From a virus: a stretch of 61,754 nucleotides of DNA. Under the pieces are notes generated by a model. It worked only from the letters and a program-made list of their open reading frames with translations. It did not search any database and was not told the origin of the DNA. The position numbers were made by a program, and so were the translations under genes. This document shows, in pieces, positions 7,869-38,930 of this stretch (position 1 is its first letter; each line of letters begins with the position of its first letter). The stretch lies in IMG/VR virus record IMGVR_UViG_3300044983_000045, positions 1-61,754 of that record; one strand, 5' to 3'.

Positions 7869-7873
7869 GAACA

Positions 7874-8056
7874 ATGAAACAAAAGCCACAGAACGAGGCT
7901 GAGCGAAACGAACACACTCGGCAGATTGGCATACGTCTGCCTGTCAGCCTCCTTGCGCGACTGGAAGTGATCGCGCACCGTGAGGCGAATGGTGTATCTG
8001 CGGTCCGTAGGCGACTGCTCTCGGCTGCGCTAGAACGTGAGAACAAGGTCGAGTGA
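7874..8056 (+). CDS. Ribbon-helix-helix (CopG/Arc-like) DNA-binding protein embedded in the sugar island
   Basis: 60 aa. QIGIRLPVSLLARLEVIA...GVSAVRRRLLSAAL fits a beta-strand/helix/helix RHH pattern. Its stop overlaps the next GTG start. Confidence 0.6.
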   Translation: MKQKPQNEAERNEHTRQIGIRLPVSLLARLEVIAHREANGVSAVRRRLLSAALERENKVE

Positions 8057-9063: not shown

Positions 9064-10025
9064 ATGTATTGGTGACTGGTGGTGCCGGCTACGTAGGCAG
9101 TCTGTTGGTGCCGGCCCTGCTTGAGCGTGGCCACTATGTCACGGTGATGGATTGGTTCCTCTACGGCGATTCGTTGAACGACCATCCCAGGTTGATCAAG
9201 GCGAAGGGCGACATCCGGACGATTAACCCCGCGCTGGTGTCAGGCCATACGGCCGTCATCCACCTCGCCTGCATCTCGAACGATCCGTCCTTTGAGCTCG
9301 ATCGCGGGCTCGGGAAGTCAGTCAACTACGACGCAACAAAGTGGCTCGTTGGGATGGCGAAGGATGCGGGTGTGAAACGGTTCATCTACGCGTCAAGTTC
9401 ATCGGTCTACGGCGTGAAGCCTGACGGTGTCGACGTGACTGAAGACCTCTCGCTTGAGCCGTTGACCGACTACAGCAAGTACAAGGCGCTTGGTGAACAC
9501 GTCGTCTTGAAGGCGCAGTCGAAGCACTTCACCACAACCGTGCTCAGACCGGCCACGCTCTGCGGCTATGCGCCACGGCAGCGGCTGGACCTGATCGTCA
9601 ACATCCTGACCAGCAAGGCGGTGCATGAGCGGGTGATTCCGGTACTCGGAGGCTCACAATCTCGTCCGAATCTCCATGTGGCCGATATGGTGCGCGCCTA
9701 CCTCGCCGTGCTCGACGCGCCAGCGAAACAGGTGGCCGGTCAGACGTTCAACGTCGGCTGTGAGAATGCCACGGTGTTGGAACTCGCGGAACGCGTGCAG
9801 GCCATCACGGGGGGAGCGTTTGTCTTTCGGCCGACGGATGACAAGCGGTCGTACGCGGTGAACAGCGACAAGATCGCCAGCGTGCTTGGTTTCCGTCCTC
9901 AATTCTCGATCGAGGATGCGGTGCGAGATCTCGTGGCCGCGTTTGCGGACGGGAAGGTGCCGAACGCGATGACCGATCCGATCTACTACAACATCAAGCA
10001 GATGCAGACATGTCACATCTCGTAA
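9060..10025 (+). CDS. NAD-dependent nucleotide-sugar epimerase/dehydratase (extended SDR), second copy
   Basis: [12 protein letters not shown]..., SSSSVYG, YSKYK (YxxxK). Confidence 0.8.
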
Positions 10026-10720
10026 TCGTTGGCGGTTCGTCAGGCATCGGGCGCGACACGATTCCGTACATGGAGGGCATGGGCCATCGCGCCACGGCGT
10101 TGCCGAGAGGGACGCGGAACGTCTGCGATGCTGAGTATTTGCGGGACATTGATTCTAAAAATCCCGTGTCCAGCCTGTTGTTCTGTCAACGCTATCGAGG
10201 CGATGATGACGATTGGATCAACGAATGGGCTGTTTCTCTGACGAGGACGAAGGAACTAATTGAATGGAGCGCTGCGAATACGGCGGTGTCCTCCATCGTC
10301 GTGATGGCCTCTGTTGCTGCCGTCTCCGTCGAAGAAGAACAGCCCGTCAGCTACCACGCCTGTAAAGCCGCCCTCGTGGAGATGGTGAAGTACTACGCGG
10401 TGACGCTCGGGCCGAGGCGGATTCGTGTCAATGCCATCATCCCCGGTCTGACGATCAAGCCAGAAGCGCGGGCGTTCTACGACAGCCATCCTGAACTCGA
10501 AGCCACGTACCGAGACATCACACCGCTCGGGCGCATGGGCACCGTGGAAGACCTCGCGCACCTCGTGGACTTCCTGATCTCTGACCGTTCCAGTTATCTG
10601 ACGGGACAGACCATCACGCTCGATGGCGGCATCGGTCTCCGCTCGGCATGGGCGTTGGCGCGACGTGTTTCTCCGGCTCTCCGAGACATTCCGGTGACAC
10701 AACGAAAGGCGGCGAAGTGA
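10010..10720 (+). CDS. Short-chain dehydrogenase/reductase (classical SDR; ketoreductase-like)
   Basis: [18 protein letters not shown] (YxxxK) and a RVNAIIPG...GR.G..EDLA...FL.SD.SSY.TGQ tail. Confidence 0.75.
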
Positions 10721-11910
10721 AGGACTGCGTGCGTGTGACGGCCTGTCGGCTCTGCGATGGTCCACTCGATCTGATCGTCTCATTCACGCCGACACCGTTG
10801 GGCGATCAGTACCTCAAAGAGCCTCAGCCCCAAGCGTGTTATCCGCTGGACCTGATGACCTGCCGATCATGTGGGGCGGTGCAGCTCGCGGACACGGTGA
10901 ACCCTGCAGCGATCTATACGGACTACATCTACACAACATCGATCTCGCCTGGATTGGATGAGCATTTCGACCGCTACGCCGAGTCGGTGCTAGAACGGGT
11001 GAAGCCGAAGCGTGGCGCGTTCGTAGTGGACATCGGCAGTAACGATGGGACGTTGCTCAAGGCGTTCGACAAACGCGGATGCTTCGTGGCTGGCGTTGAA
11101 CCGGCCGAGAGAATCGCTGAATTGGCGAGGGAATCGGACATTCCGACGTATTGCGGATTCTTCGGTCAAGCCTTCGCTGAAGAGATCCTGCAGGGAGAGA
11201 GCCTCGCCGACATCATCACCGCGAATCATGTCATGGCGAACGTGCCTGATCTCCACGACTTTATCAAAGGCGTGAAGACGCTGCTGGCACCGGACGGGAC
11301 GTTCGTCTTCGAGACGGGCTATTGGCCGGCGATCATGCGGAATAGGCTCATCGACACGATCGAGCACGAACACATTCACTACTTCGCTGCGACGCCGTTG
11401 GCGAGTTTTTTCCTCAGTCATGGCTTGACGCTTGGAAGGGTCGAAGAACAGCCAACAAAGGGCGGATCTCTTCGTGGGTATGTCCGGCACGTTGGCGATG
11501 GGCCTGTCTGGACGTCACCACTGCTGGCCGTCACTGAGCGCGCGAGTTTAGACGCTGACCATCAAGCAGCGTTGGCGTGCGAGATTTCCGCATTGCGCTC
11601 AGAGATTGGTTTGTGCGTGGCCACGAAGCCCAAGTCGGAACGGTGGGTCGGCTACGGGGCCGCGGTTGGCTCCACGCTCCTGTGCCATCATTTCGGACTC
11701 GGAGACGTCCTGACCGAGCTCTGGGACGACAACTCCAGCAGACATGGGCTCGTGTCTCCAGGCTTTCATCTTCCCGTCGTGGCGCCGAACAGTTCACAGC
11801 CTGACCGTATCGTCATTTTGGCGTGGCGCTATGCCGACAGGATCATGGCGGCCCATCCAGAGCACGCGGGGAAGTGGATTATCCCATTGCCGTCATTGAG
11901 GTTCACATGA
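10717..11910 (+). CDS. NDP-sugar C-methyltransferase (TylCIII-like, with N-terminal Zn-ribbon)
   Basis: GTG 10717 overlaps the upstream TGA. CRLCDG...CRSCGAVQL Zn-ribbon, then [12 protein letters not shown], then SAM motif [12 protein letters not shown], then a C-terminal extension. This is the architecture of sugar C3/C5 C-methyltransferases. Confidence 0.7.
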
Positions 11911-13122: not shown

Positions 13123-13602
13123 ATGCGCTACTGCGCTCAGCCTCACTGCACGGTACTGGTGAATAAGGGACGCTGCCCGACCCATGCCAAGCAGGTGGAC
13201 ATCGCCCGTGGTACCGCCCAACAGCGCGGCTATGACTATGCCTGGAGCCAATACAGCGCCCGCTTCAGAGCAGAACACCCTGTGTGTGGGGAGCGCGCAG
13301 ACGGCAGCATGGACCCTGTCAACAGCCGTTGTGTCCAGCGTGGCCTGACGACACCCGCTGAGTGTGTGGACCACACGGTACCGCTCAGATCCGCGCGTTC
13401 ACCAGAAGAACGGGAGCGTCTGAAGTGGGACGCGCGCAATCACATGAGCGCCTGTCTCGAGTGCAATAGCTGGAAGGCCAACACCCTCGAACGCCAACCC
13501 CACGCACCTGAGAGGGGAGGGTGGGTCAAATCCTCAGAGACTGAAGGCATCCAAACCGCTCCGGAGGTCGCCTCGCGTGAGGTTGGAATCAAGACGGCGT
13601 GA
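13123..13602 (+). CDS. HNH endonuclease (terminase-associated)
   Basis: C..C pairs plus VDHTVPL...NHMSACLECNSWKA. Its position immediately 5' of terS/terL matches HK97-like cos phages. Confidence 0.8.
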   Translation: MRYCAQPHCTVLVNKGRCPTHAKQVDIARGTAQQRGYDYAWSQYSARFRAEHPVCGERADGSMDPVNSRCVQRGLTTPAECVDHTVPLRSARSPEERERLKWDARNHMSACLECNSWKANTLERQPHAPERGGWVKSSETEGIQTAPEVASREVGIKTA

Positions 13603-13613
13603 AGGAAATCAAG

Positions 13614-14135
13614 ATGGCCAATGGACACGGAGGGTTACGGGTAGGGGCAGGGAGGAAGGGACGCGGGGCGCGCGTGTTGGCGTTGCATGGCGGTCGGGTC
13701 CGTTCAGAGTCTGCCAAACGTGAGCAAGCGGCGCCTATTGTGCCTCAAGAGCCGGTGAACACACCGGAGGCGCTCTCAGACGCTCAGAAAGCCGTCTGGA
13801 ATGACCTGGCGCCGCACGCGACTAAGGCAGGCACATTGACGCCGGCCACTGCGGTGAGCTTCCAGCGGCTCTGCACGGCCATCGTGAAGCACGCGCGGTG
13901 GGAGGCGCAGATCGCGACGGACGGGGACACCTACCTGAAGGTCACGATCGACGGCGCCGGACAGGAGCACACGGAGGTCAAGGCGCATCCGCTGATTGCG
14001 AAGTCCCAGGCGCTCGACAAGGACATCCGCGGGTGGATGAAGGAGTTCATCATCAGCCCTGTCGGGAAGCCGATCGTGCAGCCGACCAAGGTCGAGGATC
14101 CGTTTGAGGAGTTCACGGGAGCCGGCACGCAGTGA
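13614..14135 (+). CDS. terS: Terminase small subunit (P27 family)
   Basis: LSDAQKAVWNDLAP...TLTPATAVSFQRLC...ARWEAQI...HPLIAKSQALDKDIRGWMKEF. ATG 13614 follows AAGGAA; an alternative GTG start is at 13599. Confidence 0.75.
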   Translation: MANGHGGLRVGAGRKGRGARVLALHGGRVRSESAKREQAAPIVPQEPVNTPEALSDAQKAVWNDLAPHATKAGTLTPATAVSFQRLCTAIVKHARWEAQIATDGDTYLKVTIDGAGQEHTEVKAHPLIAKSQALDKDIRGWMKEFIISPVGKPIVQPTKVEDPFEEFTGAGTQ

Positions 14136-15802
14136 ACCCAGTCGACGACTACGCGCGTGCGGTGGTCGCGGGCGACGTGCCAGCCGGGAAGTACCACCGG
14201 CTCGCCTGTGCTCGGCATCTGAAAGACCGTGCTCGCGAAGCATCCGAGGGTTTCCCGTATCGGTTCGACCTGTCGAAAGCTGAACGGTTTTTTCGTTTTG
14301 CTGAGAAGTTGAAACACTACAAGGGAGAATGGGCAGGGCAATTCATCCAGCTGCGGCCGTACCAGAAGTTCCGCCTCGGGTCGATCTTTGGCTGGGTCCA
14401 TGTCGGGACCGACATGCGACGGTTCCGGAACTCCTACAGCGAGATTCCGAGAAAGAACGGCAAATCGCTCGAAGCAGCCGTTGTGGCGCTCTACCAGACG
14501 TTCTTCGACGGCGAGCCAGGGGCGGAGGGCTACTGCGCGGCGACGAAACGGGACCAAGCCGCCATCGTGTTCAACGACTGTAAGAAACTGGTCCAGTCGT
14601 CAGGGCTCAAGACGCGGATCGCGGTGCAGGTCTCGAACCTCCACCGAGACGATACCGCCTCGAAGCTCGAGCCGCTCGGGGCCGACCACGATTCGACGGA
14701 CGGCTTGAACCCGAACCTGATCATCATTGATGAGATGCACGCGCACAAGAACCGCGGACTCATCGATGTGCTCGAGACGGCGACTGGCGCACGCCGGCAA
14801 CCGCTCGTCTTCAAGATCACGACGGCTGGAGACGATCCGGTCACACCAGGCGGCGATGAACATGACTACGCGTGCAAAGTGCTCGAAGACGTTCTGAAGG
14901 ATGAGAGCTACTTCGCGTTCATTGCCCATGCGGATCCACAGGATGACTGGAAGCTGCCGGCGACGGCGATGAAGGCGAACCCCAACTATGGTGTATCGGT
15001 CAACGCAGAGGATCTGGCGTCGAAAGTCACAAAGGCCACGTCGATGCCGTCGGCCGCGGCCACGTACAAACAGAAACACCTAAACCTCTGGGTGAATGCG
15101 ACCGCGCCGTGTCTATCCGTGGAAGGCTGGCGGAAAGGCCAGAGCGACTGGGAGATTGACGAACTCGAACATGAACCGTGTTTCGTCGGGGTCGACCTCG
15201 CGTCAAAGATCGACCTCTGCGCGGTGTCGTTTGTCTTCCCGCCTGGAGTCGGCCGGCCGAAGTGGCGGATCTTCCAACAGCTCTGGACGCCGGCTGACAC
15301 CCTCATCGACCGAGCGCATCGGGACCGGGCGCCGTATCCAGTGTGGGTCGACCAGGGCTGGTTGATGGCCGTGCCAGGGACATCGATCGATCACGACGTG
15401 GTGAGACAGGCGATTCTTGAACTCCGCGACAAGTTCGACATCCAACAGATTGGGTTCGACCCGTGGCACGCGGATACGCCGATCAAGAACCTTGTGAACG
15501 TCGATGGATTCTCGGAAGAGCAGGTGATCGCGGTGCCGCAGACGTTTGCCGGGATGAGTGGCGCGTGTCTCCGGGTCCAGGCGGACATCCTCGCAGGGGA
15601 CATCGACGCGCGGCGGTGTCCGGTAACGGCGTGGGCCGTGTCTAACACTGTAGGTCAGCGGGACGGGAAGGATAACCTGATGTTCGCGAAGGGTAAGAGC
15701 CGCGGGCGGATCGACCCGGTGATCTCGGCGACGGTGGGGGTGAGTCTGGCGATTCGGCACACGGCGGTGCAGCCGGTGGATACATGGGCGGAATGGCTCT
15801 AG
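14132..15802 (+). CDS. terL: Terminase large subunit
   Basis: 556 aa. FRFAEKLKHYKGEWAGQ...LRPYQKF, Walker-like region, and IIIDEMHAH with a C-terminal nuclease half, as in Terminase_1/HK97-like TerL. Confidence 0.9.
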   Translation: MNPVDDYARAVVAGDVPAGKYHRLACARHLKDRAREASEGFPYRFDLSKAERFFRFAEKLKHYKGEWAGQFIQLRPYQKFRLGSIFGWVHVGTDMRRFRNSYSEIPRKNGKSLEAAVVALYQTFFDGEPGAEGYCAATKRDQAAIVFNDCKKLVQSSGLKTRIAVQVSNLHRDDTASKLEPLGADHDSTDGLNPNLIIIDEMHAHKNRGLIDVLETATGARRQPLVFKITTAGDDPVTPGGDEHDYACKVLEDVLKDESYFAFIAHADPQDDWKLPATAMKANPNYGVSVNAEDLASKVTKATSMPSAAATYKQKHLNLWVNATAPCLSVEGWRKGQSDWEIDELEHEPCFVGVDLASKIDLCAVSFVFPPGVGRPKWRIFQQLWTPADTLIDRAHRDRAPYPVWVDQGWLMAVPGTSIDHDVVRQAILELRDKFDIQQIGFDPWHADTPIKNLVNVDGFSEEQVIAVPQTFAGMSGACLRVQADILAGDIDARRCPVTAWAVSNTVGQRDGKDNLMFAKGKSRGRIDPVISATVGVSLAIRHTAVQPVDTWAEWL

Positions 15803-15814
15803 GAGGACGGGTGA

Positions 15815-18580
15815 GTGTCTAACCTGCCAGTGCGTCAGTCCGGCCTCACACGTCTTGAGCGTATCAAGGAGGCGGTGCGGTCCTATTGGCTGGGACCGAT
15901 CATGTCCAGCGACCCACGCGCCAGAGACTTCTTCGGCGGATCGCCCACCAGTACAGGCGTGTCGGTCGATGAGTTCTCCGCGATGAACTACTCGGCCGTC
16001 TATGCCGCGGTGCAGTTGATTTCGTCGCAGGTCGGCAATCTGCCTCTGGTCCTGTACAAGAAGCTACCAGGAGGCGGGAAGACCCGCTACGAGGCGCATC
16101 CGCTCTATCGACTTGTGCATGATCGGCCGAATCCGGAGATGTCGTCACTCGTCTGGCGCGAGAGCCTTCAGGCGCATGTGTTGACGTGGGGCAATCTGTA
16201 TTCGGAGATCGTCCGCAATGGCGAAGGGCGTCCTGTGGCGCTGTGGCCGATTACACCAGACCGAGTGACGCCGTTTCGTCGTGGGTCGGATACCCCGCTC
16301 GAGTATCGCATCGTGAATGGTGACGGGAGCGATGATTTTATCGCCGCCGCCGACATGATCCACGTACCAGGGCTGGGGTTCAACGGGATCATCGGCTATT
16401 CCGTCATCCAGAAAATGCGGGAGTCGATCGGGCTCGGCATGGCCGCGGAGCGCTTCGGTGGCGCGATGTACGGGAACGGTCTGGCCATCGGTGGCGTCGT
16501 GTCCTTTAAAGGCCCGAAGCCGCAAGAACTCTCAGACGCCAACTATCTCGCCTCGCTCAACTCGAAGCATCAAGGCGTGGATCGCGCGCATAGAATCCTC
16601 GCGCTCTACAACGATGCGAAGTACGAGCGGATGAACATTCCGCCGAACGACGCTCAGTTCCTCGAAACGCGGCAATTCCAGGTCGATGAAATTGCACGGT
16701 GGTTCAATCTCCCGCCGCACAAACTCAAAGAACTGATGCGCTCGACGAACAACAACATCGAACACCAGAACCTGGAGTATTACATTGACTGCCTGTCGCC
16801 GTGGCTGGAACGGTGGGAACAGGAACTCTGCGAGAAGCTGATTTCGCCACTAGAGCGGAATCAGCAGGAGATCGAGTTCGTCGCGGACGGCCTCTTGCGC
16901 GGAGATGTGACATCCCGTGGAGAGTTCTACAGTAAGCAATTCAGCATTGCGGGGCTGAAGCCGAACGAGATGCGAGCGAGCGAGAATCGTAACCCGATCG
17001 ATGGCGGGGACGACGCGTTCGTCGCACTGAATCTCATTCCGTTGAAGTTGGCGGTTCCGTATTACGAGGCGTTGATCGATTCGACGAAAGCGAAGGCCGA
17101 AGCGGATCGGCGTCCACCGCCGCCTCCTCCGCCGCCGCCGGGCAATGACCAGAATGCCGGACGGGCGTGGGAAGTGCTTCAGGAGGAACTCGCGACAGCG
17201 CGCCGGATCGCGCAAGAGTTGGAAGACGCCAAGGATCGGGCGGCTGTCGAAAGTGCGTCCGCACTCGCGCGAGAACAGGAAGCACGGAAGGCCGACGTGG
17301 AGCGGCTGACGGCTGAGGCTACCAGGATCGGCCTTGATCTGATGAATGCCGTCCGCGATAGGGGCGTGGTGGTTGAGGAGCGCGATGCGGAGCGCAGCCG
17401 CAACGCTGACCATGCGGCGGCAACCGCGTCGATGGAAGCAGCCGCGGTGGAGCTTCGTGCCCAAATCGCGACGCTGACCACGGAAAGCGAGGCGACACAG
17501 CGCGAACTCGCCACCGCCACGGAACGCATCGCCCTGATCGAAGCCGACTATCAGCGAGTGTGCGGAGAGAAGACGAATCTTGAAGGCTGCGTCACGTCGG
17601 CCGGCCTCACGATCATAGCGCTGGAAACCGAACGCACCGAACTCAAGAGCCAGGCGGAAGGACTCAGTCTCGATGTCGTCAAGGCGCAGCGTGAGACGGC
17701 AGCAGCCGAGGCACGCGCGGCCGAGGTGGAAGTCGGACGGTCAGAGGCGCTGACGCTCGCCGCTGAGACTGCAATCGCACGGGACGAAGCACTGGCGACC
17801 GCTGAGCGGGCTGAGGCAGCCCGCGTGGAATGGCAACAGCAGGCCGAGAGCCTGAAGGCGGCGGCTCAACAGGTCGATAGCGAACGCGCACAGGAACGCG
17901 AGACAGCACTACAGCGCATCGCGGCCTTGGAAGCGGAAGGCCAACGGCTGATCGAGGCGCGGACCCATGCCGATGAAGTAAATCAGGCGACCGTGACGGA
18001 ACTCCGCGGACAGATCGACGCCGTAACGCAGGAAATGGCGTCCACCACGGCGGCGCTGCTTGAGGCGAAGACCGTGATCGGGACGCTGGAGGCGACACGT
18101 GACAGCCAGCGCGCACTCCTGACGGCCTCAGACGAGGCCATCGCGGCTCACACGGCGGTGCGTCAGCAGCTCGAAACACGACTCGCGGAGACACGATTGG
18201 CCATCCGCGGCACCGTCGTTGATGCAGTGAACCGCCTGCTGGCCAAGGAAACGGAACGGGCTCGAAAGGCCCAAGCCTCACCGGAAAAGTTGGGTGCCTG
18301 GATCCATACGTTCTATCCGATCCATGAGGACTTCTGCCGGATCGCTCTGAAGCCGGCGGTGCGTGCATTGTTGATCGCACACGGGTCCGATGTGCCCGTC
18401 GATCGTCTGTTGGACCGAATGGTGCTCGCGCACATCAGCGAGTCGACGCGGCAGTTGCAGGGCGTGCTGCAGGATTCAGACATCGAGAGTCTCCCGCCGG
18501 CGCTGGAACGTCTGCTGCGTCGATGGGAAGCGGAACGGGCGGAATCGTTTGCCGATCGCATTTTAACCGAGGTGGCCTAG
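15815..18580 (+). CDS. Portal protein (HK97 family) with an approximately 500-aa C-terminal coiled-coil extension
   Basis: AGGAGGA lies 8 nt upstream of GTG 15815. The first ~420 aa have portal motifs (VSVDEFSAMNYSAVYAAVQLIS...WFNLPPHKL...). Then come a P10 linker (17117-17146) and a long A/E/R/Q-rich heptad-like region. Confidence 0.85.
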   Translation: MSNLPVRQSGLTRLERIKEAVRSYWLGPIMSSDPRARDFFGGSPTSTGVSVDEFSAMNYSAVYAAVQLISSQVGNLPLVLYKKLPGGGKTRYEAHPLYRLVHDRPNPEMSSLVWRESLQAHVLTWGNLYSEIVRNGEGRPVALWPITPDRVTPFRRGSDTPLEYRIVNGDGSDDFIAAADMIHVPGLGFNGIIGYSVIQKMRESIGLGMAAERFGGAMYGNGLAIGGVVSFKGPKPQELSDANYLASLNSKHQGVDRAHRILALYNDAKYERMNIPPNDAQFLETRQFQVDEIARWFNLPPHKLKELMRSTNNNIEHQNLEYYIDCLSPWLERWEQELCEKLISPLERNQQEIEFVADGLLRGDVTSRGEFYSKQFSIAGLKPNEMRASENRNPIDGGDDAFVALNLIPLKLAVPYYEALIDSTKAKAEADRRPPPPPPPPPGNDQNAGRAWEVLQEELATARRIAQELEDAKDRAAVESASALAREQEARKADVERLTAEATRIGLDLMNAVRDRGVVVEERDAERSRNADHAAATASMEAAAVELRAQIATLTTESEATQRELATATERIALIEADYQRVCGEKTNLEGCVTSAGLTIIALETERTELKSQAEGLSLDVVKAQRETAAAEARAAEVEVGRSEALTLAAETAIARDEALATAERAEAARVEWQQQAESLKAAAQQVDSERAQERETALQRIAALEAEGQRLIEARTHADEVNQATVTELRGQIDAVTQEMASTTAALLEAKTVIGTLEATRDSQRALLTASDEAIAAHTAVRQQLETRLAETRLAIRGTVVDAVNRLLAKETERARKAQASPEKLGAWIHTFYPIHEDFCRIALKPAVRALLIAHGSDVPVDRLLDRMVLAHISESTRQLQGVLQDSDIESLPPALERLLRRWEAERAESFADRILTEVA

Positions 18581-19152
18581 TGGACACTCTTGAACGTCGC
18601 GCCTTCGTCGACTGCCGCGTGGACGCCATCGACAATCGCCGTCTTCGTGGATACGCGATCGTCTTCAACGCCCGAAGCCAGAACCTGGGCGGGTTTCAGG
18701 AAATCATCGCACCAGAGGCGATCGATCGCACGTTCAAGGAAGCGATTGACGTGCGGGCACTGGTGGATCATGAATCGTCCAAGGTGATCGGACGCCTGCG
18801 GGCCGGCACGTTGGACATGAAGAAAGACGGCAAAGGGCTCCGTGTCACCATTGAGCCCGATCCGGACATCAGTTACGCGCGAGACATCATGCTGGCGGTC
18901 AAGCGCGGCGATGTGTCAGGCATGAGCTTCGCGTTCCGCACGATCGAGGACGACTGGAACTACGAAGACGACAACATGCCGCTGCGGACGGTACTCGACA
19001 TGCGGGTGAGCGAGGTGAGCATCGTCACGTTCCCGGCGTATACCCAGACGGACGTCCAGGTCGCGCAGCGTTCCATGCAGGAGTTTGTGGCACACCGCAA
19101 GGGCATGTCTGTCGATTTCGCGCGGAAACTTCATCAAACGAGGTTGGCATGA
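18580..19152 (+). CDS. Prohead maturation protease (HK97 family, S78-like)
   Basis: GTG 18580 overlaps the portal TAG. LRGYAIVFN...GFQEIIAPEA...VRALVDHESSKVIGR...GDVSGMSFAF. Confidence 0.85.
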   Translation: MDTLERRAFVDCRVDAIDNRRLRGYAIVFNARSQNLGGFQEIIAPEAIDRTFKEAIDVRALVDHESSKVIGRLRAGTLDMKKDGKGLRVTIEPDPDISYARDIMLAVKRGDVSGMSFAFRTIEDDWNYEDDNMPLRTVLDMRVSEVSIVTFPAYTQTDVQVAQRSMQEFVAHRKGMSVDFARKLHQTRLA

Positions 19153-19400
19153 GCGACGGCTGGCATCCGATCAGTGACGACGGCGAGCGCATGGTGACCG
19201 CTGCACCGATGGGCTATTCGCTGTATGCCGTGCATGGATCGATCGATCCGACGGCGTCCACGCGACGGTTTCACTGGTCCGGATTCGTGCCAGAGTTCGC
19301 GCACGCCGAGCAGTGGTTGAAGGACGGACAGATCATCGGCGAGATCGTGGAGATCACGGTGACGCCGAAACCGGTGAAGGTCAAGAGTGGGGCGGCGTAG
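19149..19400 (+). CDS. Hypothetical protein
   Basis: 83-aa ORF coupled by ATGA to the protease gene. Confidence 0.5.
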   Translation: MSDGWHPISDDGERMVTAAPMGYSLYAVHGSIDPTASTRRFHWSGFVPEFAHAEQWLKDGQIIGEIVEITVTPKPVKVKSGAA

Positions 19401-20964
19401 TTTCAGCCACGGCGGCACGATTCGGAAGGCGTCTCGCCAGCAGCAACAGGCATGGGTGCCGAAGGTCCGCGATCAGTCGGCCCTGAAGATGACCGCCGAG
19501 ATCCTGCAGGACATCTGGAAGGCGCAAGCGCTCTACGATGCCGGGGACTGGGACGCCTGCGAGCCGGTGATCCGACGACTGCTCAAGGCGGGGTTGACCC
19601 AGCCGCTGACGTATGACGCGCTCGGCAGCGTGGCGCAGTTCCAAGGTCGGATGGACGTCGCGATCGAGTGTTTCCGAAAGGCGCTGTCTGTCGATCCAGG
19701 CTACGTGGAAGCGCGCAACCGGATCATCATGATCCTCGACGCGTTACCAGAGACATCTCCGGTGACCGCAGCACGCGAGCGGGCGAAATGGTGGGCGCAG
19801 CATGGCGCGGATCGGTACGCACGCCGCCGGCCGCCGCTCGGGAGCCGCGATCCGCATCGGCCGATTCGCGTCGGCTATGTGTCAGCGGACTTCCAGTTTC
19901 ACAGCGCCGCGACGGTGTTTCACCGGATCGTCACCGAGCACAGTGAGGGGTTCGTTCCGTATCTCTACTCATCGACGCCGTACACGAAGTACGACCAGAT
20001 CACGAACACCTATCGGGCCATGCCCGGCTGGCGGGATGTGGTGGACTGGCCAGACATTCTCGTCGCCGAGAAGATCCGCGATGACCAGATCGACGTGCTG
20101 GTGGACCTGTCCAACTTCACCGCGCACAATCGGTTGGGTGTCTTTGCGTCTAAGCCAGCGCCGATTCAACTCACGGGGTTCGGATACGCCCTCGCGACCG
20201 GGTTTCCGTGTTTCGATGGCGTGCTAACTGACCGAATCGTGACGCCACCAGGCACGACGGAAGGCGAGCCACCCGTGTATCTTCCATCGGTGATCGACTA
20301 CCAAGGCACTGAAGGACTACCCGAGGCCAACCCGCTGCCGTGCCTGACCGAGCGGCCGACGTTCGGGGTGTTCCAGCGCAGTCTGAAGATCAACGCGCAT
20401 GGGATCCGGCTGTGGGCGCGCGTGCTCGAGCGATTGCCTGAAGCGCGACTGATCATGAAGTCGCACTATTCACCGAGTCTCCAGCAGTGGATCCGTGAGC
20501 AGTTCGGCGCACAGTCGGCCCAAGTCGAGATCCGCGGCGCGACGAGTTCGTACGAGCACAAGTTGATGTATTCCGAGATCGACCTGAACCTTGACCCGTT
20601 CCCGCAAACGGCGGGCGTGTCTGGCTGTGACGGGATCTATATGGGCGTGCCGATGGTTACGCTTCTCGGTGAGCGCGCGATTCAGCGGACGTCGGCGTCA
20701 TTGCTCACGAACTTGGGCCTGACCGACTTCATCACCACGTCTGAGGATGCGTACGTGGACACCGCCGTGGAAAGGGTGACAACGCGGAGAGACGAGCTCG
20801 CGGCGATTCGGCAGACGTTGCGGGCGACGTTGGTCGCCTCACCGATCTGTTTCGGATACACCGAAGCCGTGGAAGCCGTCTATCGTGACCTATGGCACAC
20901 CTATTGTGCGAAGCCGATGACGCTCGCCGATGCTGCCTATCGGCTACAGGAGGCTGTCGCATGA
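19387..20964 (+). CDS. TPR-containing GT41-family glycosyltransferase (O-GlcNAc transferase / SPINDLY-like)
   Basis: N-terminal TPR-like helices (AQALYDAGDWDACEPVIRRLLKAG...ALSVDPGYVEA). Then IRVGYVSADF..HS...DVLVDLS.FT..NRL.VFA.KPAPIQ....GY..TTG...D.....D and PTFGVF....KI, LDPFP..GGVS..D, which are typical GT41 catalytic lobes. The start is uncertain (GTG 19387 or ATG 19489). Confidence 0.75.
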   Translation: MGRRSFSHGGTIRKASRQQQQAWVPKVRDQSALKMTAEILQDIWKAQALYDAGDWDACEPVIRRLLKAGLTQPLTYDALGSVAQFQGRMDVAIECFRKALSVDPGYVEARNRIIMILDALPETSPVTAARERAKWWAQHGADRYARRRPPLGSRDPHRPIRVGYVSADFQFHSAATVFHRIVTEHSEGFVPYLYSSTPYTKYDQITNTYRAMPGWRDVVDWPDILVAEKIRDDQIDVLVDLSNFTAHNRLGVFASKPAPIQLTGFGYALATGFPCFDGVLTDRIVTPPGTTEGEPPVYLPSVIDYQGTEGLPEANPLPCLTERPTFGVFQRSLKINAHGIRLWARVLERLPEARLIMKSHYSPSLQQWIREQFGAQSAQVEIRGATSSYEHKLMYSEIDLNLDPFPQTAGVSGCDGIYMGVPMVTLLGERAIQRTSASLLTNLGLTDFITTSEDAYVDTAVERVTTRRDELAAIRQTLRATLVASPICFGYTEAVEAVYRDLWHTYCAKPMTLADAAYRLQEAVA

Positions 20965-21137
20965 GCCGACCGAAACAGTTTGACGGGCCTCCGATTAGCG
21001 TTCGACTCCCGGCACGCCTTCAGGACGATCTCTGCCGAGAGGCTATACGCCGAGAGATCGACTTAGCCCAGGTGATCCGAGAACGGTTGGGTTTCGTATC
21101 TCAAAACTCCGCCCAAGCCCAAACCTCCGCATACTAG
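20961..21137 (+). CDS. Ribbon-helix-helix (CopG-like) DNA-binding protein
   Basis: 58 aa. PISVRLPARLQDDLCREAIRREIDLAQVIRERL fits an RHH pattern. The ATG overlaps the GT41 stop (ATGA). Confidence 0.55.
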   Translation: MSRPKQFDGPPISVRLPARLQDDLCREAIRREIDLAQVIRERLGFVSQNSAQAQTSAY

Positions 21138-21333: not shown

Positions 21334-22701
21334 ATGACCCGAGTCGAACTGCTCGAAAAGAAAGGACGCTTGGCCAATGAAGCCAAGGAGATCCTGACCG
21401 CGGCCCAGGCCGATGGTCGCGAAACGCTCCGCAAGGAAGAGGAAGACAAGTTCCACGCGATCCACGCCGACATCGAGGCATTGACCAAGCAGGTCAGCAT
21501 CCTCGACAAGCAGGACGAAGTCGAGCGGTCGATCGCCGAACCCGGCAGCCGCCGGAGCGAGCCGAATCAGCTCGAGAGCCAGCGCAGTGCCCAGCCATCC
21601 AGTATCGCCCGTGGCAATCGTGACCAACAGGACGCCATCCGGGGCTGGTTCCTGGCTGGTGCGCCAAGTGCGGGCGCGGTGCCGCAGCACTATCGGGATG
21701 CTGCACGAAGGGTCGGGTTGAACCTCGACAACAAGAGCCTGAACTTCCGTCTGGCCGGCAACAGCCTCCAGTCCCGCACCTCAGACGAGATGCGCGTGTG
21801 GCAGACCCTCCACGACGAAGAGCGCGCGATGGCCGGCCCGCAGTCGACCACAAGCGTCGGCGGCTATTCGATTCAGGACGCCGCGATGCGCGAGGTCGAA
21901 GTCGCGCTCTTGGCCTACGGCGCCATGCGTCGCGCGGGTTGCACCATCATCCGCACGGATACCGGTGGACCGCTGCCGATTCCGACCGTCAACGACACCA
22001 CCAACGTCGGGGCGCTCATCGGTGAAGGTGTGACCGTCGGCACGCAGGACGTCGCGTTCGGCCAGCTCGTGCTGGATGCGTGGAAGTACACCTCGAAGTC
22101 CGTGCTGGTCTCGACCGAACTGATGCAGGACAACTCGGTCAACCTGCCGCAGCTCCTCGGTCGCCTGCTCGGCGAGCGTCTCGGCCGCATCACCAACACG
22201 CACTTCACGACCGGCACCGGCACAGGCCAGCCGAACGGCGTCGTAACGGCGGCCACCTTCACCCAGGCGACGACCGGTAACACCACGAACATCACGCTGA
22301 CCAACCTCGTGGGCCTCTACCACTCGGTCGATCCGGCCTATCGCGACAACGCGAAGTGGATGATGAACGACAACTCGCTGTCGAAGATCAAGCTGCTGAC
22401 CGATTCGCAGGGCCGTCCGCTGTGGCTGCCTGGGCTCGTCGATCGCGCACCTGACACCATTCTTGGTTCGCCGTACGTCATCAACCAGGACATGTCCTCG
22501 ATGACGATCAGCGGGAAGTCGATTCTGTTCGGGGACTTCTCGAAGTACTGGATCCGCGACGTGCGGGACGTGACGCTGCTCCGGCTCGACGAGCGGTTCG
22601 CCGAGTTCCTGCAGGTGGCGTTCCTCGCGTTCATGCGGACGGACGGCGACCTGTTGGACGCCGGCACGCACCCGATCAAGGGCTACCAGAACTCCACGTA
22701 G
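21334..22701 (+). CDS. Major capsid protein (HK97 fold) with N-terminal delta/scaffold-like domain
   Basis: N-terminal coiled segment, then GGYSIQD...LLAYGAMRRAG.TIIRT.TG.PL.IP.V.D...AFGQLVLDAWKY...VSTELMQD...LGERLGRI.N.HFTTGTGTGQP.G. GAGGAA lies upstream of ATG 21334. Confidence 0.9.
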   Translation: MTRVELLEKKGRLANEAKEILTAAQADGRETLRKEEEDKFHAIHADIEALTKQVSILDKQDEVERSIAEPGSRRSEPNQLESQRSAQPSSIARGNRDQQDAIRGWFLAGAPSAGAVPQHYRDAARRVGLNLDNKSLNFRLAGNSLQSRTSDEMRVWQTLHDEERAMAGPQSTTSVGGYSIQDAAMREVEVALLAYGAMRRAGCTIIRTDTGGPLPIPTVNDTTNVGALIGEGVTVGTQDVAFGQLVLDAWKYTSKSVLVSTELMQDNSVNLPQLLGRLLGERLGRITNTHFTTGTGTGQPNGVVTAATFTQATTGNTTNITLTNLVGLYHSVDPAYRDNAKWMMNDNSLSKIKLLTDSQGRPLWLPGLVDRAPDTILGSPYVINQDMSSMTISGKSILFGDFSKYWIRDVRDVTLLRLDERFAEFLQVAFLAFMRTDGDLLDAGTHPIKGYQNST

Positions 22702-22759: not shown

Positions 22760-23080
22760 ATGAAAGTCACCATCATTCCTTCCAGCGTGCTCGGCGGGCA
22801 GGGCAGCATCGGATCGGGTTCGCTAAGCGTGCCGAATGCGGCTCCCGGCGTCGGACCGATCAACGGCGAGATGGGAAACGACGACGTCGTGGTCTCGATC
22901 GCGAATCCCGGTAACGACAACTTCAGCAGCGAAGCGGATGAAGCCTTCCCGATGCACCTTGATGGAGGCATTCAGCCGATGGCCACACCCGCGCCGAGTC
23001 CCGTCATGGCGACGCATCCGCCGGGCGGGAACGAACCCATGAGTCAGTACTCCACGCAAGGCCCGATTCCGAAAGGGTGA
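22760..23080 (+). CDS. Hypothetical protein (possible head decoration or accessory protein)
   Basis: 106-aa ORF with CAGGAG 8 nt upstream. Gly/Pro/Ser-rich. Located directly after the capsid gene. Confidence 0.55.
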   Translation: MKVTIIPSSVLGGQGSIGSGSLSVPNAAPGVGPINGEMGNDDVVVSIANPGNDNFSSEADEAFPMHLDGGIQPMATPAPSPVMATHPPGGNEPMSQYSTQGPIPKG

Positions 23081-24425: not shown

Positions 24426-24847
24426 TGGGTGCCAGAGTCGTGTTGAACGGCCTCGACGAACTGCGCGCGCAGTTACGGGCGCTGCCTGAAGACTTGGCGA
24501 CCGAAGCTCAAGAGATTGTCGTCGCCAACGCCAACGCGGCGGCGAACGATATTCGCTCAGGCTATCCGCACGGGCCGACGGGCAATCTACGAAGCCATGT
24601 CACGGTGGCGCAGACGCGTTCACGCGTGACGACGACGGCCAAGGTGAGCAGCCGCGCACCGCACGCCAACATCTTCGAGCGCGGGACCGCAAACCGTGTC
24701 ACGAACAAAGGCTGGAACCGCGGCCGGATGCCACAACCGCCAGCGTCGGAACGGATGATCCCAAAGGTCGCTCGTCAACGCCGGATCATGGTCGAGGCAC
24801 TTAAGGCGCTGGTTCTGCGGCACGGGGCGACCGAGGTCAGCGAATGA
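24425..24847 (+). CDS. HK97 gp10-family neck/tail-completion protein
   Basis: GTG start. LDELRAQLRALPEDLATEAQEIVVANANAAANDIRSGYPHGPTGNLRSHV. Confidence 0.7.
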   Translation: MGARVVLNGLDELRAQLRALPEDLATEAQEIVVANANAAANDIRSGYPHGPTGNLRSHVTVAQTRSRVTTTAKVSSRAPHANIFERGTANRVTNKGWNRGRMPQPPASERMIPKVARQRRIMVEALKALVLRHGATEVSE

Positions 24848-25581
24848 CGCCGACCCTGACGATCGTCGTGCCGACGATTGGCCGTCAGACGCTGGAGACG
24901 ACGCTGGCCTCCATTGCGCGGCAGGATCTGCGGCCAGGCGACCGCGTCGTAGTGGCGTTGGATACCTACCAGGAACCGCATCGGCCTGACGTGGCGGCCC
25001 TCGTCGCGCGCTACGGCTTTGAGCTCTTGCCGGTCGATGGTGGCGTGCATTTCATGGGCAACCCGCAACTCAATGCGGCGATCGCTACCTGTACGACGGA
25101 CTACTTGTGCGCGCTCGGTGATGACGACGTGTATGTCGACGGAGCCATTGCCACGATCCGCGCGAGGCTGAAACCCGGCCGCGCGCTTCTGTTCCAGTTC
25201 TACGCCCCACCCTACTTGGTGGCTGGCGATCCGCGCCGGTTCGTCATGTGGGCCGATCGGAAGTTGCGGGTGGCCAACATCTCCGGGTGCTGCGTCGTCG
25301 CGCCGCGTGAAGCACTTGTGCCGGTCAGCGCTCAGCAGCGGTGCGAGGTGGACTTCGACTGGATCCGAGACATTGTCGCCCAGACCGGTCGCAGGCCGAT
25401 CTGGCTCGAGCAGGTGCTGATCATCGCGCGTCCTGATCTCAGGAACGGGGAGCCCGTGCATCAGGGCGTCGCGACATGCCCTGGCTGTGGGTTCCGTGGG
25501 TTCGTTGAGGACTTCGCGGGCGGGCTCTGCGGAGACTGTGCGCCTGTCGTGATCCGCGAACTGCTGGGAGCCTCCGCGTGA
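24844..25581 (+). CDS. GT2-family (GT-A fold) glycosyltransferase with C-terminal Zn-ribbon
   Basis: LTIVVPTIGRQTLETTLASIARQDLRPGDRVVVALD, DxD-like LGDDDVY, and C-terminal CPGCG...CGDC. The start overlaps the upstream stop. Confidence 0.75.
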   Translation: MTPTLTIVVPTIGRQTLETTLASIARQDLRPGDRVVVALDTYQEPHRPDVAALVARYGFELLPVDGGVHFMGNPQLNAAIATCTTDYLCALGDDDVYVDGAIATIRARLKPGRALLFQFYAPPYLVAGDPRRFVMWADRKLRVANISGCCVVAPREALVPVSAQQRCEVDFDWIRDIVAQTGRRPIWLEQVLIIARPDLRNGEPVHQGVATCPGCGFRGFVEDFAGGLCGDCAPVVIRELLGASA

Positions 25582-26681
25582 CAGTCCGCAAGTTGCGGCT
25601 CCTGCTGTGTCACCCCGGAGCGAGTTGGGCGACCGCGGATATTTTCTGGGGGCTCCTGCACGGTCTGAAGTATCACGACGTCGAGGTCGTACCGTTCCGG
25701 CTCGATCAGCGCTTCGCGGCCTCGCAGTCGTCCTTGTACTGGCTGTGGCGCACGAAGAAGAAGACCGAACCGAATCTGGAGCGGCCCAACGCGGCGGATC
25801 TGAGTTATCACGCCAGCATCGGGGCGCTGGAAATGGCCCTCCGACATCACGTCGATTGTGTCGTGGTGGTCAGCGCCATGCTGCTCCATCCCGACGTGTT
25901 GATCATGATGAAGGAAGCAGGACTGCGCGTCGTGGTCCTGTTCACGGAATCGCCGTACGACTACGACGCCGAGATGCGAGTCGCGAAGATCGTGGATGGG
26001 GGTTGGACGAACGAACGGTGTGTCGTCCGCGCGTTTCGCTCGGTCAATCCGCACTTCGGCTACCTGCCGCACGGCTGGAACCCGCTGGTGCATCGCACCG
26101 ACACGCCGATCGATGACAGCGTGCCGGCGCATGACGTCGTGTTCGTCGGGACTGGCTTTCGAGAACGGTATCGGTTCTTCAACAGCATCGACTGGACCGG
26201 GATCAACCTCGGTCTCTACGGGACATGGGATCCACGTCTGCTGAATAAGCAAGTGCGGGCGTGTCTCCAGAACGGCCCGGTCGCTAACGAACAAGCCGTG
26301 TTGCTCTATCGCCGAGCGAAGGTTGGACTGAATCTCTATCGCACCTCGCAAGGATGGGGATCGCAAGCGCCATCGATCGCCCATGCGGAATCGGTGAATC
26401 CGCGGGCGTATGAACTGGCGGCGTGTGGCACGTTCTGTCTCTCAGATTACCGATCGGAATCGGCGGAAGTCTTCGGCGATCTCGTGCCGATGTTCCGTTC
26501 ACCGATTGAGGCGGCGGCCCTGATCCGGAAATGGCTGGCTGATGAAACTGGCCGTCAGCGGATCGCGGCAGCACTTCCTGCGCGTGTCGCAGAGGCTTCG
26601 TGGATCCACCGCACCAAGACGGTGTTGGGGGATCTGCAACAGCTCCTTTCAGGACGGCCGGAGTTGGCCGTAGGAGCCTAA
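25578..26681 (+). CDS. GT-B glycosyltransferase (CgeB-like / Glyco_trans_1_2)
   Basis: DVVFVGTG...R..FF......INLGLYG..W and the C-terminal NPRAYELAACGTFCLSDYR.E..E.FGDLVPMF.S..EA...I..WL are typical of CgeB/DUF3880-type GT1 proteins. Confidence 0.65.
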   Translation: MTVRKLRLLLCHPGASWATADIFWGLLHGLKYHDVEVVPFRLDQRFAASQSSLYWLWRTKKKTEPNLERPNAADLSYHASIGALEMALRHHVDCVVVVSAMLLHPDVLIMMKEAGLRVVVLFTESPYDYDAEMRVAKIVDGGWTNERCVVRAFRSVNPHFGYLPHGWNPLVHRTDTPIDDSVPAHDVVFVGTGFRERYRFFNSIDWTGINLGLYGTWDPRLLNKQVRACLQNGPVANEQAVLLYRRAKVGLNLYRTSQGWGSQAPSIAHAESVNPRAYELAACGTFCLSDYRSESAEVFGDLVPMFRSPIEAAALIRKWLADETGRQRIAAALPARVAEASWIHRTKTVLGDLQQLLSGRPELAVGA

Positions 26682-26685: not shown

Positions 26686-27090
26686 ATGTCTGCACATGCC
26701 GGCCGCTCTGGTGCTGTCTATCTGGCGATTGAATCCGCCACAGGCGTCGCCACTTCCACGATCAAGCTCAACGCGTGGACCCTCGATCGCTCGACGGACA
26801 CCTATGACGTCACGTCCTTCGGAGACGCGAACAAGACGTATGTCCAGGGCCTCCCTGACCTGAAAGGCACGATCTCGGGATCGTGGGATGACTCGGAAAC
26901 GAAACCGTTTGCGGGCGCGTCCTCGTCCACGGGCGTCAAGCTCTATCTCTATCCGGACATCACCAATTCGCCGACGAAGTACGCCTACGGCACGGCGTGG
27001 CTGAACGCCTCGATCGAAACGCCAGTCGCCGGCGCGGTCAAGATCACGGCGAACTTCGTCGCGGCAGCGAGCTGGACGGTCAACCTGTAA
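26686..27090 (+). CDS. Major tail (tube) protein
   Basis: 134 aa with AGGAG upstream. G.AVYLAIES....T..IKLNAWTLDRSTDTYDVTSFGD....YV.GL.D..G.ISG.WD is a siphovirus tube-protein pattern. It sits 5' of the chaperone and tape measure genes. Confidence 0.8.
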   Translation: MSAHAGRSGAVYLAIESATGVATSTIKLNAWTLDRSTDTYDVTSFGDANKTYVQGLPDLKGTISGSWDDSETKPFAGASSSTGVKLYLYPDITNSPTKYAYGTAWLNASIETPVAGAVKITANFVAAASWTVNL

Positions 27091-27870: not shown

Positions 27871-28593
27871 ATGGCTACCGACTTAGAAAAGCGCGAGCGC
27901 CAAAAGGCGTACTACCTCGCAAACCGCGACAGGATTATCGCGCGGGTGTGTGAGCGTGCGCGCGAGAAGGCGGCGGAGATCAAGGCGTACAAGCAGGCGT
28001 GGCAGGCGAAGAACGCCGAGCGGATTGCAGCGAAGAAGCGGGTCTATCAAGCCGAGCATCGCGACGACATCTCCGCTTACCACAAGGCGCGATACGCCGC
28101 ATCTCCAGAAGCAGCCAAAGCTCGCTCCATCGCCTACAACAAGGCACACGCAGCCAACGTACGTGCGGCGAATAAAGCCTACCGTAGTGCCAATAAGCAC
28201 AAGATCGCGGCTGCTAAACGCGAGCACCAGGCCGCCAACGCAAAGCGATTGAACGAGATCAGTCGATCGTACTACCGAGAGAACAGGAATGTGCTCAGGC
28301 CAAAGATGAACGCCTATATGAAGGGGTTTCGCCTGAGGCATCCAGAGAAGCACGCTGAAAAGGAAGCGCGCCGAAGAGCTCAGAAGAAGCTGACGCAGGT
28401 CGAGAAGGTCGACTACAGGCAGATCTTGGAGGACTCGCGCGGTTTGTGCGGCATCTGTCGCAAGCCTCTTGATTTGTTCGGCATCGATTTCGACCATATC
28501 GTTCCTTTGGCCCGTGGTGGATCTCACACGCGCCAGAACCTGCAAGCGACGCACTCGTATTGCAACCGCGCTAAAGGCGCAAGGACGGCATGA
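27871..28593 (+). CDS. HNH endonuclease with N-terminal basic helical repeats (free-standing, homing-endonuclease-like)
   Basis: C-terminal CGICRKPL...DFDHIVPLARGGSHTRQNLQATHSYCNRAKG. The N-terminus has reiterated (K/R)AY..AN...I.A.K(R) units. It is inserted between the chaperone and tape measure genes. Confidence 0.8.
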   Translation: MATDLEKRERQKAYYLANRDRIIARVCERAREKAAEIKAYKQAWQAKNAERIAAKKRVYQAEHRDDISAYHKARYAASPEAAKARSIAYNKAHAANVRAANKAYRSANKHKIAAAKREHQAANAKRLNEISRSYYRENRNVLRPKMNAYMKGFRLRHPEKHAEKEARRRAQKKLTQVEKVDYRQILEDSRGLCGICRKPLDLFGIDFDHIVPLARGGSHTRQNLQATHSYCNRAKGARTA

Positions 28594-38671: not shown

Positions 38672-38759
38672 TGGCGGAAGGTACAGGAATCGAACCTGTG
38701 CGCGCCGAAGCGCGGCCTCCGGTTAGCAACCGGGCGCGATGCCTCTCTGCCAACCTTCC
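38672..38759 (-). tRNA. tRNA-Ser (anticodon GCT), class II
   Basis: The reverse complement is GGAAGGT-TG-...-CCGG-TTGCTAA-CCGG-[long arm GGCCGCGCTTCGGCGCGC]-ACAGG-TTCGATT-CCTGT-ACCTTCC-G-CCA. Folded by eye, 88 nt with encoded CCA. Confidence 0.8.
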
Positions 38760-38764
38760 GAAAA

Positions 38765-38843: not shown

Positions 38844-38852
38844 ATTCGAAGA

Positions 38853-38929: not shown

Positions 38930-38930
38930 A

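Follow-up and report, generated by a model that had tools for sequence, protein, structure and literature searches.

An OGT/SPINDLY-type glycosyltransferase gene linked to the major capsid gene of a tailed phage, and its possible role in virion glycosylation

The virus genome IMGVR_UViG_3300044983_000045 of IMG/VR (61,754 nt, analyzed over its full length and hereafter called the window) carries within its head-assembly operon a 525-aa open reading frame (ORF) at 19387-20964 (plus strand, GTG start), whose product belongs to glycosyltransferase (GT) family 41 (GT41). As judged from its sequence and structural model, it is a genuine GT41 enzyme with tetratricopeptide repeats (TPRs), it falls in the O-linking branch represented by O-GlcNAc transferase (OGT) and SPINDLY (SPY), and it looks catalytically intact. 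Both this identity and the evolutionary linkage of the gene to capsid genes are solid. Glycosylation of the virion is the best-supported function for the enzyme, and the gene context makes it rather probable. An initial annotation of this DNA had already described a TPR-GT41 of the OGT/SPINDLY type between the prohead protease and major capsid genes and had suggested that it modifies capsid or decoration proteins, possibly at Asn residues.

The protein matched Pfam PF13844 (Glyco_transf_41) with 90.9 bits (E = 7.6e-26; cut-off 25), and Pfam TPR matches covered residues 47-117 (TPR_2/TPR_14 at 75-112). The best phmmer matches in the PDB included SPY (4.7e-71, residues 53-510 against 377-848), Thermobaculum OGT (8e-45) and human OGT (4e-37), as well as XcOGT. 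With a family profile built from 38 homologues, the values reached 2.8e-113 for SPY, 2.6e-83 for human OGT and 2.4e-82 for TtOGT. An AlphaFold (AF2) model based on the alignment of these 38 homologues had a predicted local distance difference test score (pLDDT) of 91.8 and a predicted template modelling score (pTM) of 0.89. It comprises a disordered N-terminus (residues 1-21), three TPR-like hairpins over residues 37-145 (helices 37-52/55-67, 73-85/89-102 and 107-119/125-145; nucleotides 19495..19821) and then a two-lobe Rossmann-type domain, the GT-B catalytic lobes (residues ~156-510; 19852..20916). Foldseek superposed this model on SPY (8dti) and TtOGT (5djs) with template modelling (TM) scores of 0.81-0.83, root-mean-square deviations of 2.5-2.8 Å and E values of 1e-33 to 1e-37, and every one of the top 50 matches was SPY or OGT. 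Family, fold and the succession of TPRs and GT-B lobes are thus shared with SPY (7Y4I, 8DTF-8DTI) and with bacterial OGTs (5DJS; XcOGT, 2VSN), in agreement with the OGT/SPINDLY-like designation given in the initial annotation. TtOGT (529 aa) resembles the phage enzyme in size and TPR number, whereas SPY has 11 TPRs and OGT 13.5, compared with about three in the phage protein.

The residues expected for catalysis are in place. By phmmer alignment, D168, H172, S173 and K334, all within the GT-B lobes, correspond to SPY D491, H495, S496 and K665 (OGT K842), SPY H495 being the equivalent of OGT H558. All four were invariant across the 38 homologues, down to 39% identity; P104, D118 and R132 were also invariant, and W135 and W136 nearly so. 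Mutagenesis of SPY revealed that H495 and K665 are essential and that S496 positions the acceptor (PMC9715652), and the phage protein shares this His, Lys and Ser with SPY and OGT. It is therefore probably an active protein O-glycosyltransferase. The donor side differs. Q407 replaces SPY Y744, V411 replaces SPY T748/OGT T921, and R331 replaces SPY N662/OGT Q839, and these three positions are invariant (R331) or at least 90% conserved within the family. Since the residues contacting sugar and phosphate are unlike those of OGT and SPY, the donor is probably neither UDP-GlcNAc nor GDP-fucose.

The GT41 gene lies between the gene for the prohead (S78) maturation protease (18523-19152, plus strand; PF04586, E = 6e-48; phrog_80) and that for the HK97-type major capsid protein (21334-22701, plus strand; PF05065, E = 1.4e-57; phrog_10). 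The capsid ORF opens at 21265, but translation probably begins at ATG 21334, which follows an AGAGGAA motif and gives 455 aa. A gene for a 58-aa ribbon-helix-helix (RHH)-like protein (20961-21137, plus strand) separates GT41 and capsid genes, and an 83-aa ORF (19149-19400, plus strand) stands between protease and GT41 genes. The placement in the initial annotation was right in its outline, including the succession of GT41, RHH and capsid genes, and had left out this 83-aa ORF. The GT41 start overlaps the stop of ORF 19149-19400 and its stop overlaps the RHH start codon at 20961 (ATGA), which follows a GGAGG ribosome-binding site. Between 18.4 and 27.2 kb, no sigma-70-like promoter and no plus-strand terminator-like site were found; the one terminator-like hairpin in the operon scan was on the minus strand (21387-21369). 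These overlaps and the lack of internal promoter or plus-strand terminator signals suggest that the GT41 gene is co-transcribed and translationally coupled with the head genes. Its G+C content at third codon positions (GC3) of 0.77 is similar to that of adjacent genes. The earlier assignment of the ORF to the head-assembly operon is confirmed.

We then looked at the genes surrounding GT41 homologues in other viruses (numbers beginning with L are our own designations for related loci). About 70 metagenomic homologues shared 50-93% identity with the phage enzyme. Three long contigs, with homologues at 81%, 60% and 62%, had the same gene order as the window, namely protease, GT41, (RHH), capsid, further genes, a gp10-like gene, a GT2-like gene, a Glyco_trans_1_2 gene and tail. 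Scanning IMG/VR with a GT41 profile yielded 57 loci, the contexts of which were read by local hidden Markov model searches. The succession protease, GT41, capsid was present in 17 of the 57, with GT41 identities as low as 34-36%; loci with this order include L001-L015, L020, L031/32 and L034, and the slot position is kept from 93% down to 34% identity. The initial annotation had asked whether GT41 genes adjoin capsid genes in related phages, and in 33 of 41 viral loci (identity ≥32%) the GT41 gene does adjoin a protease or capsid gene, a count that takes in the smaller cases L025, L036, L039 and L040 and that spans four unrelated capsid families. The other three head families are SU10-like/phrog_9953, phrog_283 (with a scaffold gene) and phrog_1005. 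There, the GT41 gene is downstream of the major head gene, one to three genes (~0.1-1.6 kb) after it, with one or more small genes in between. A conserved 212-251-aa protein is encoded between the major head gene and GT41 in these three lineages (contigs L016-L022, L027, L030 and L043), accompanied by other small genes in L029 and L043. It matches a 'virion structural protein' family in the SU10-like lineage and is duplicated in L017 and L019. In these phages, it might serve as a decoration protein and be the true acceptor.

In a rough neighbour-joining tree (without support values), the head-module GT41 proteins grouped in a single clade that excluded the 40 best cellular homologues. The latter, with identities from 32% to no more than 42%, were mostly from Proteobacteria and Planctomycetota, and related phage markers were present in none of 79 cellular genome loci. 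A single-sequence genome scan for GT41 in prophages gave no match, and a profile scan recovered cellular homologues only. The nearest cultured phages, with 34-40% identity in capsid protein or terminase, include Vibrio phage Baybae, Labrenzia phage vB_LagS-V1, Marinobacter AS1 and Pseudomonas phages. The capsid gene comes right after the protease gene in Baybae and vB_LagS-V1, and neither has a GT gene before the tail gene. A tblastn search with GT41, GT2 and Glyco_trans_1_2 in 50,697 GenBank phages, which include mycobacteriophages (Mycobacterium phages appear among the TerL matches), returned no homologue, and no near-identical phage was found. BFVD offered no close fold match, only generic GT-B matches with TM scores of at most 0.44. 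The absence of matches in both resources agrees with the view of the initial annotation that a GT41-based virion system had not been reported for phages. In the literature on GT41 or OGT and phage capsids, we found only CAZyme tallies in virome surveys.

Two additional GT genes are located immediately upstream of the gene for the 134-aa major tail (tube) protein (26686-27090, plus strand; matching phrog_10528, phrog_1407 and phrog_9522, all 'major tail protein'), and connector, head-completion and gp10-like genes lie between the capsid gene and this pair. The first (24844-25581, plus strand, 245 aa) is GT2-like, of GT-A type (PF00535, E = 3.5e-5, 24.3 bits versus a cut-off of 23.3), with a DDD motif read by eye in the translation (…CALGDDDVYVDG…). 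The second (25578-26681, plus strand, 367 aa) encodes a Glyco_trans_1_2 protein, a CgeB/YkvP-like GT-B enzyme (PF13524, E = 1.2e-19); PF13524 is the CgeB/YkvP family of spore maturation, to which a role in the glycosylation of another protein shell is ascribed. We found no sequence relatives of either protein in the PDB. Orthologues of the GT2 gene occupy the same position in L001, L002, L007, L009 and L014, and the position of Glyco_trans_1_2 is likewise conserved in relatives. In L020 (14213-16099) and L043 (12154-14058), the two are fused into a single ORF, suggesting that they work together. L043 has a different capsid family, with GT41 nearby and the same module of fused GT and tail tube genes. 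The initial annotation had mentioned neither these two genes nor the sugar cassette described below.

A comparison of the contexts of capsid homologues at 49-55% identity (L142-L148) indicated that the gap between protease and capsid genes and the gap between gp10 and tail tube genes are variable slots. Neither slot contains a GT in L143, L145, L146 and L148. In L142, the head slot is empty and the tail slot holds a GT2 gene, a gene for a 227-aa protein, another GT2 gene and Glyco_trans_1_2, while the tail slot of L147 combines a TylF-type O-methyltransferase with a GT2 homologue and Glyco_trans_1_2. The head slot of L144 (4942-6874 of ENA contig ERZ27252134) has no GT41 and is filled by homologues of the GT2 (1e-44) and Glyco_trans_1_2 (3e-81) of the window; a further CgeB-like Glyco_trans_1_2 gene is in its tail slot. 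L144 is a case of non-orthologous replacement at a fixed position. Of all the contextual evidence, this exchange of GT41 for a non-homologous GT pair, right beside the gene encoding the virion's most abundant protein, argues most strongly that the slot serves capsid modification. Where cultured relatives carry a gene for tail termination or completion, the window has its GT2 and CgeB-like genes; we recognised no separate tail-terminator gene in it. The GT41-free L145 encodes, upstream of the terminase (1-733, precomputed Pfam), a PF01973 (MptE-like) domain fused to a methyltransferase. We take PF01973 to be a domain of Maf flagellin glycosyltransferases; if so, L145 carries another enzyme resembling flagellin GTs.

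A nucleotide-sugar cassette of seven genes (2717-11910, all on the plus strand) is found upstream of the terminase genes. It encodes a short-chain dehydrogenase/reductase (SDR) of the epimerase/4,6-dehydratase type (2717-3694; PF01370, 4.5e-59), a fused nucleotidyltransferase and PfkB kinase resembling HldE with reversed domain order (3637-5016; PF01467 and PF00294; NCBIfam HldE, 7.5e-40, below cut-off), and the N and C subunits of a split transketolase (5557-7219; PF00456, PF02779, PF02780; NCBIfam 2.5e-55 and 1.2e-54, below cut-off). These are followed by a Zn-dependent dehydrogenase (8053-9063; Pfam ADH_N/ADH_zinc_N), a second SDR epimerase/reductase (9060-10025; Pfam Epimerase) and a TylC3-type C-methyltransferase for nucleoside diphosphate (NDP)-sugars (10648-11910; Methyltransf_13/23/14). 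The distant L031 and L034, devoid of tail-slot GTs, carry the set of SDR, nucleotidyltransferase and kinase together with GT41, and L002 has the trio of dehydrogenase, SDR and C-methyltransferase, again upstream of its terminase. As a reasonable guess, the product would be a nucleotide sugar derived from heptose or modified in some other way.

The major capsid protein is the candidate acceptor and the tail tube protein is a second candidate. All close relatives share the capsid C-terminus GYQNST. In capsids at a slightly greater distance, the endings are QNATA, QQATA or QMAAT, each with a Thr among its last three residues, and the capsids of the GT-free cultured phages Baybae and LagSV1 end in QNAA/MANA. 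This pattern recalls, by analogy, the C-terminal O-glycans of mycobacteriophage capsids. Elsewhere in the protein, T234 (455-aa numbering) was the only column with Ser/Thr in all 13 GT41-positive capsids and in two of the eight GT41-negative ones, and residues 308-321 form a Thr-rich loop (TFTQATTGNTTNIT). Ser and Thr together make up 24% of the tail tube protein, the C-terminus of which is not Ser/Thr.

The activity, O-linkage, acceptor and site, donor sugar and division of labour among the three GTs that we infer can be put together as follows. GT41 would be made late, from the same transcript as the head proteins, and act as a cytoplasmic O-glycosyltransferase. Its three TPRs and conserved linker could hold an extended Ser/Thr segment of a virion protein, most likely the adjacent major capsid protein or else another head protein, while the GT-B lobes (Asp-His-Ser, Lys) would transfer the sugar residue of a nucleotide sugar to a hydroxyl group before or during assembly. 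GT41 may thus be one arm of a phage-borne virion-glycosylation system in which the GT2-like and CgeB-like GTs glycosylate the tail tube and/or extend the glycan, and the seven-gene cassette supplies an unusual nucleotide sugar, possibly derived from heptose.

Several observations weigh against this proposal. It is drawn from gene context, and gene adjacency is correlative, as phage structural operons also carry morons of unrelated function. The acceptor site in the capsid protein was not pinned down by C-terminus or column contrasts. L031 and L034 have GT41, yet their capsids end in INAA, and the capsid of L148 ends in YGTQA, like that of the GT41-bearing L015, yet L148 has no GT in either slot; a C-terminal Ser/Thr, conserved in the close clade and inconsistent across wider relatives, is therefore no clean marker of GT presence or of the acceptor site. 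The T234 contrast is weak and phylogenetically confounded. The AF2 model of the capsid protein (pLDDT 58, pTM 0.34) was too poor for judging whether the C-terminus and the Thr-rich loop are exposed at the surface. All NCBIfam matches of the sugar genes were below curated cut-offs, so that enzyme classes, and no particular sugar, are established. Genes of GmhA and GmhB type, needed for a full heptose pathway, were not found in the genome, and the heptose idea accordingly remains a guess. Lastly, Q407, V411 and R331 depart from both characterized enzymes at the donor side.

Other explanations for the GT41 gene were considered. The initial annotation had pointed to HMW1C-type N-glycosyltransferases and to five N-X-S/T sequons in the capsid protein, and the enzyme might accordingly add hexoses to their Asn residues. 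HMW1C enzymes are indeed classed in GT41 (PMC3012730). Three of the sequons are fairly conserved among 15 capsid sequences (NDT in 12, NTT in nine, and the C-terminal NST in nine), and the QNATA ending of some relatives is also a sequon. The five sequons do exist; two are unique to this phage, and shuffling the sequence 5000 times gave 3.1 ± 1.6 sequons from composition alone (P = 0.195). This number at chance, together with an enzyme outside the N-linking branch, defeats the sequon argument, and sequon enrichment was discarded as evidence for N-glycosylation. Close relatives with the same set of GTs, moreover, have capsids ending in QQATA, which is not a sequon. HMW1C/ApNGT (3Q3E) belongs to the same CAZy family, has a distantly similar C-lobe and likewise glycosylates proteins in the cytoplasm, but its match to the family profile was confined to the C-lobe (residues 237-457) and reached no more than 7.4e-07 (31 bits), far from the values for SPY and OGT. 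It was absent from the single-sequence phmmer search at E ≤ 0.01 and from the 50 best fold matches. In place of the TPRs of the phage enzyme, HMW1C-type enzymes possess an all-alpha domain, and their linkage to Asn at sequons is unsupported for the phage enzyme. The N-glycosylation part of the earlier proposal is thus very unlikely.

A more plausible, although still unlikely, alternative is that GT41 is a late effector acting on a non-virion target, either a host protein, modified for takeover or to weaken a defence or sensing pathway, or a phage regulator such as the RHH protein, the position in the head operon merely setting the timing. OGT and SPY regulate many intracellular proteins (PMC9715652), cellular homologues at 32-42% identity are common without any link to phages, a Q-T motif is invariant at the C-terminus of the RHH protein, and no acceptor site was identified in the capsid protein. 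Against this, four unrelated capsid families show GT41 linked specifically to their major head gene, which is unexpected for a host-directed effector; the slot is also filled by a different GT pair, with paralogues beside the tail tube gene; the RHH gene is found where GT41 is absent as well; and late expression is poorly timed for host takeover. It is quite improbable that the three GTs and the cassette remodel a host surface polysaccharide (lipopolysaccharide, capsule or S-layer glycan) to bring about lysogenic conversion or to exclude superinfecting phages. The phage is temperate, serotype-changing phage GTs are well known from reviews, and the cassette resembles O-antigen or capsule sugar pathways; but GT41 would be a soluble OGT/SPY-type enzyme by family and homology, in a family that modifies proteins, the GT genes belong to the late structural operon, with overlaps of stop and start codons, and are not next to the integrase, and GT41 tracks capsid genes across lineages. 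We give very little credence to a passenger (moron) without a role for the phage or to a non-catalytic protein, for example a TPR chaperone. Related phages do assemble without GT41 (L142, L143, L145-L148, Baybae), and the claim of activity derives from sequence and model. Nevertheless, the catalytic residues stay invariant in distant homologues, the position of the gene is maintained over the identity range given above, and sugar-pathway genes co-occur with it.

To our knowledge, glycosylation of phage virions was first demonstrated in 2023 and only in mycobacteriophages. Their GT genes appear to form a separate tandem block outside the structural modules, while the GT genes of the window are in its head and tail modules. 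Phage GTs of Che8, Corndog and Myrna reportedly attach O-glycans to the C-termini of capsid and tail-tube subunits, and these glycans alter antibody recognition (Freeman 2023, Cell Host Microbe 31:1216). The GT genes of the window adjoin exactly the genes for these two candidate targets. Some of its relatives (L147) pair GTs with an O-methyltransferase, as in cluster O mycobacteriophages, for which three tandem GT genes after an O-methyltransferase gene are described. The mycobacteriophage GTs shared no sequence similarity detectable by tblastn with the three GTs of the window. Unlike the mycobacteriophage system, the window has a GT41 and a dedicated nucleotide-sugar cassette, and its nearest cultured relatives by capsid or terminase infect Proteobacteria rather than Actinobacteria.

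For mechanism, the best analogue of the phage enzyme appears to be FlmG of Caulobacter, the likeness being one of architecture. In this soluble enzyme, an N-terminal TPR domain captures flagellin, the building block of an extracellular polymer that assembles itself, and a C-terminal GT-B domain O-glycosylates the bound subunit while it is still unassembled in the cytoplasm, with pseudaminic acid delivered by a dedicated nucleotide-sugar pathway (PMC7591256). FlmG is a cellular gene with flagellin as substrate. Cellular SPY and OGT are regulators with many substrates, while the phage GT41 sits inside a head-assembly operon.

Taken at the strength that gene context allows, the window would encode virion glycosylation, a kind of system discovered not long ago, in a form that relies on an OGT/SPY-type enzyme, modular GT slots in head and tail and a phage-borne sugar pathway. 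If so, virion glycosylation arose more than once and is modular and common in uncultured phages, with an OGT-type enzyme in the head module that other GTs can replace at the same slot. More tentatively, and leaning slightly against it ourselves, we consider that a phage-specific GT41 subfamily could travel with major-capsid genes in at least four unrelated capsid lineages of environmental tailed phages and O-glycosylate capsids with phage-made sugars (possibly an ADP- or NDP-heptose derivative), the GT2- and CgeB-like enzymes taking care of tail tubes. Virion glycosylation would then be widespread and modular well beyond Actinobacteria, and its likely use would be to mask the virion from proteases, adsorption sinks and capsid-sensing bacterial immunity rather than from antibodies; evasion of defences that sense capsid proteins is among the possible roles. 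As a compact system of one enzyme and one capsid protein, the locus could help to understand how an OGT-like enzyme with three TPRs selects just one structural protein as its substrate, what range of donor sugars is open to GT41 enzymes, and how a glycan coat benefits phages in soil or water. Glyco-engineering of phage particles is a possible use.

Regarding the small neighbours of GT41, ORF 19149-19400 (GC3 0.81) had no family match in library searches, and L001 and L004, the nearest relatives, were the only loci with homologues of it. The assignment of the RHH fold comes from weak profile matches to VapB26 (0.0012) and ORF56 (0.0036) and from PF01402 in the L001 orthologue. RHH homologues are present in the GT41-free relatives L142, L143, L145, L147 and L148, indicating that this gene is a resident of the slot and that GT41 was inserted between the protease and RHH genes; the RHH gene was therefore rejected as part of a GT41 cassette. 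It is immediately upstream of the capsid gene across the whole phage lineage. A non-coding gap of ~196 nt, similar in L001, separates it from the capsid start, and its product may regulate capsid expression. The invariant Q-T of the RHH protein is in its C-terminal tail (QAQTSAY), within a conserved Q-T-S. Downstream of the capsid gene, ORF 22760-23080 (plus strand, 106 aa) looks coding (GC3 0.74). The initial annotation had presented it as Ser/Thr/Pro-rich; the ORF does exist, and it is mainly Gly/Pro/Ser-rich, with 15% Ser plus Thr. It had no family match and no phmmer or tblastx counterpart in related loci; being unique to this genome, it cannot be a conserved substrate and was dismissed as such. 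It is a lineage-specific insertion and might encode a decoration protein or represent a moron.

The window spans a complete contig, with an exact copy of bases 1-127 at 61628-61754, as expected from a circularly assembled genome of ~61.6 kb; a third copy of the repeat, 71% identical, is at 61469-61595, 159 nt upstream of the end copy. The genome encodes an integrase (43244-44347, minus strand), a helix-turn-helix (HTH) repressor-like protein and a cytosine DNA methylase, which mark it as a temperate tailed phage. The late operon begins with the terminase genes TerS (13599-14135) and TerL (14132-15802), followed by the portal gene (15815-18580). The portal protein is long (921 aa), with its portal domain confined to residues 60-391. 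The C-terminal ~480 residues start with a run of ten prolines, followed by a long Ala/Glu/Arg-rich extension, probably a coiled coil. Portals of relatives are likewise large (800-918 aa), and the extension may be scaffold-like. An HNH endonuclease gene (27871-28593), without equivalent at the matching position in L001, lies between tail-chaperone-like ORFs and the gene for a probable tape-measure protein of 1092 aa. Four tandem tRNA genes were predicted by Rfam scan at 38675-39007 on the minus strand.

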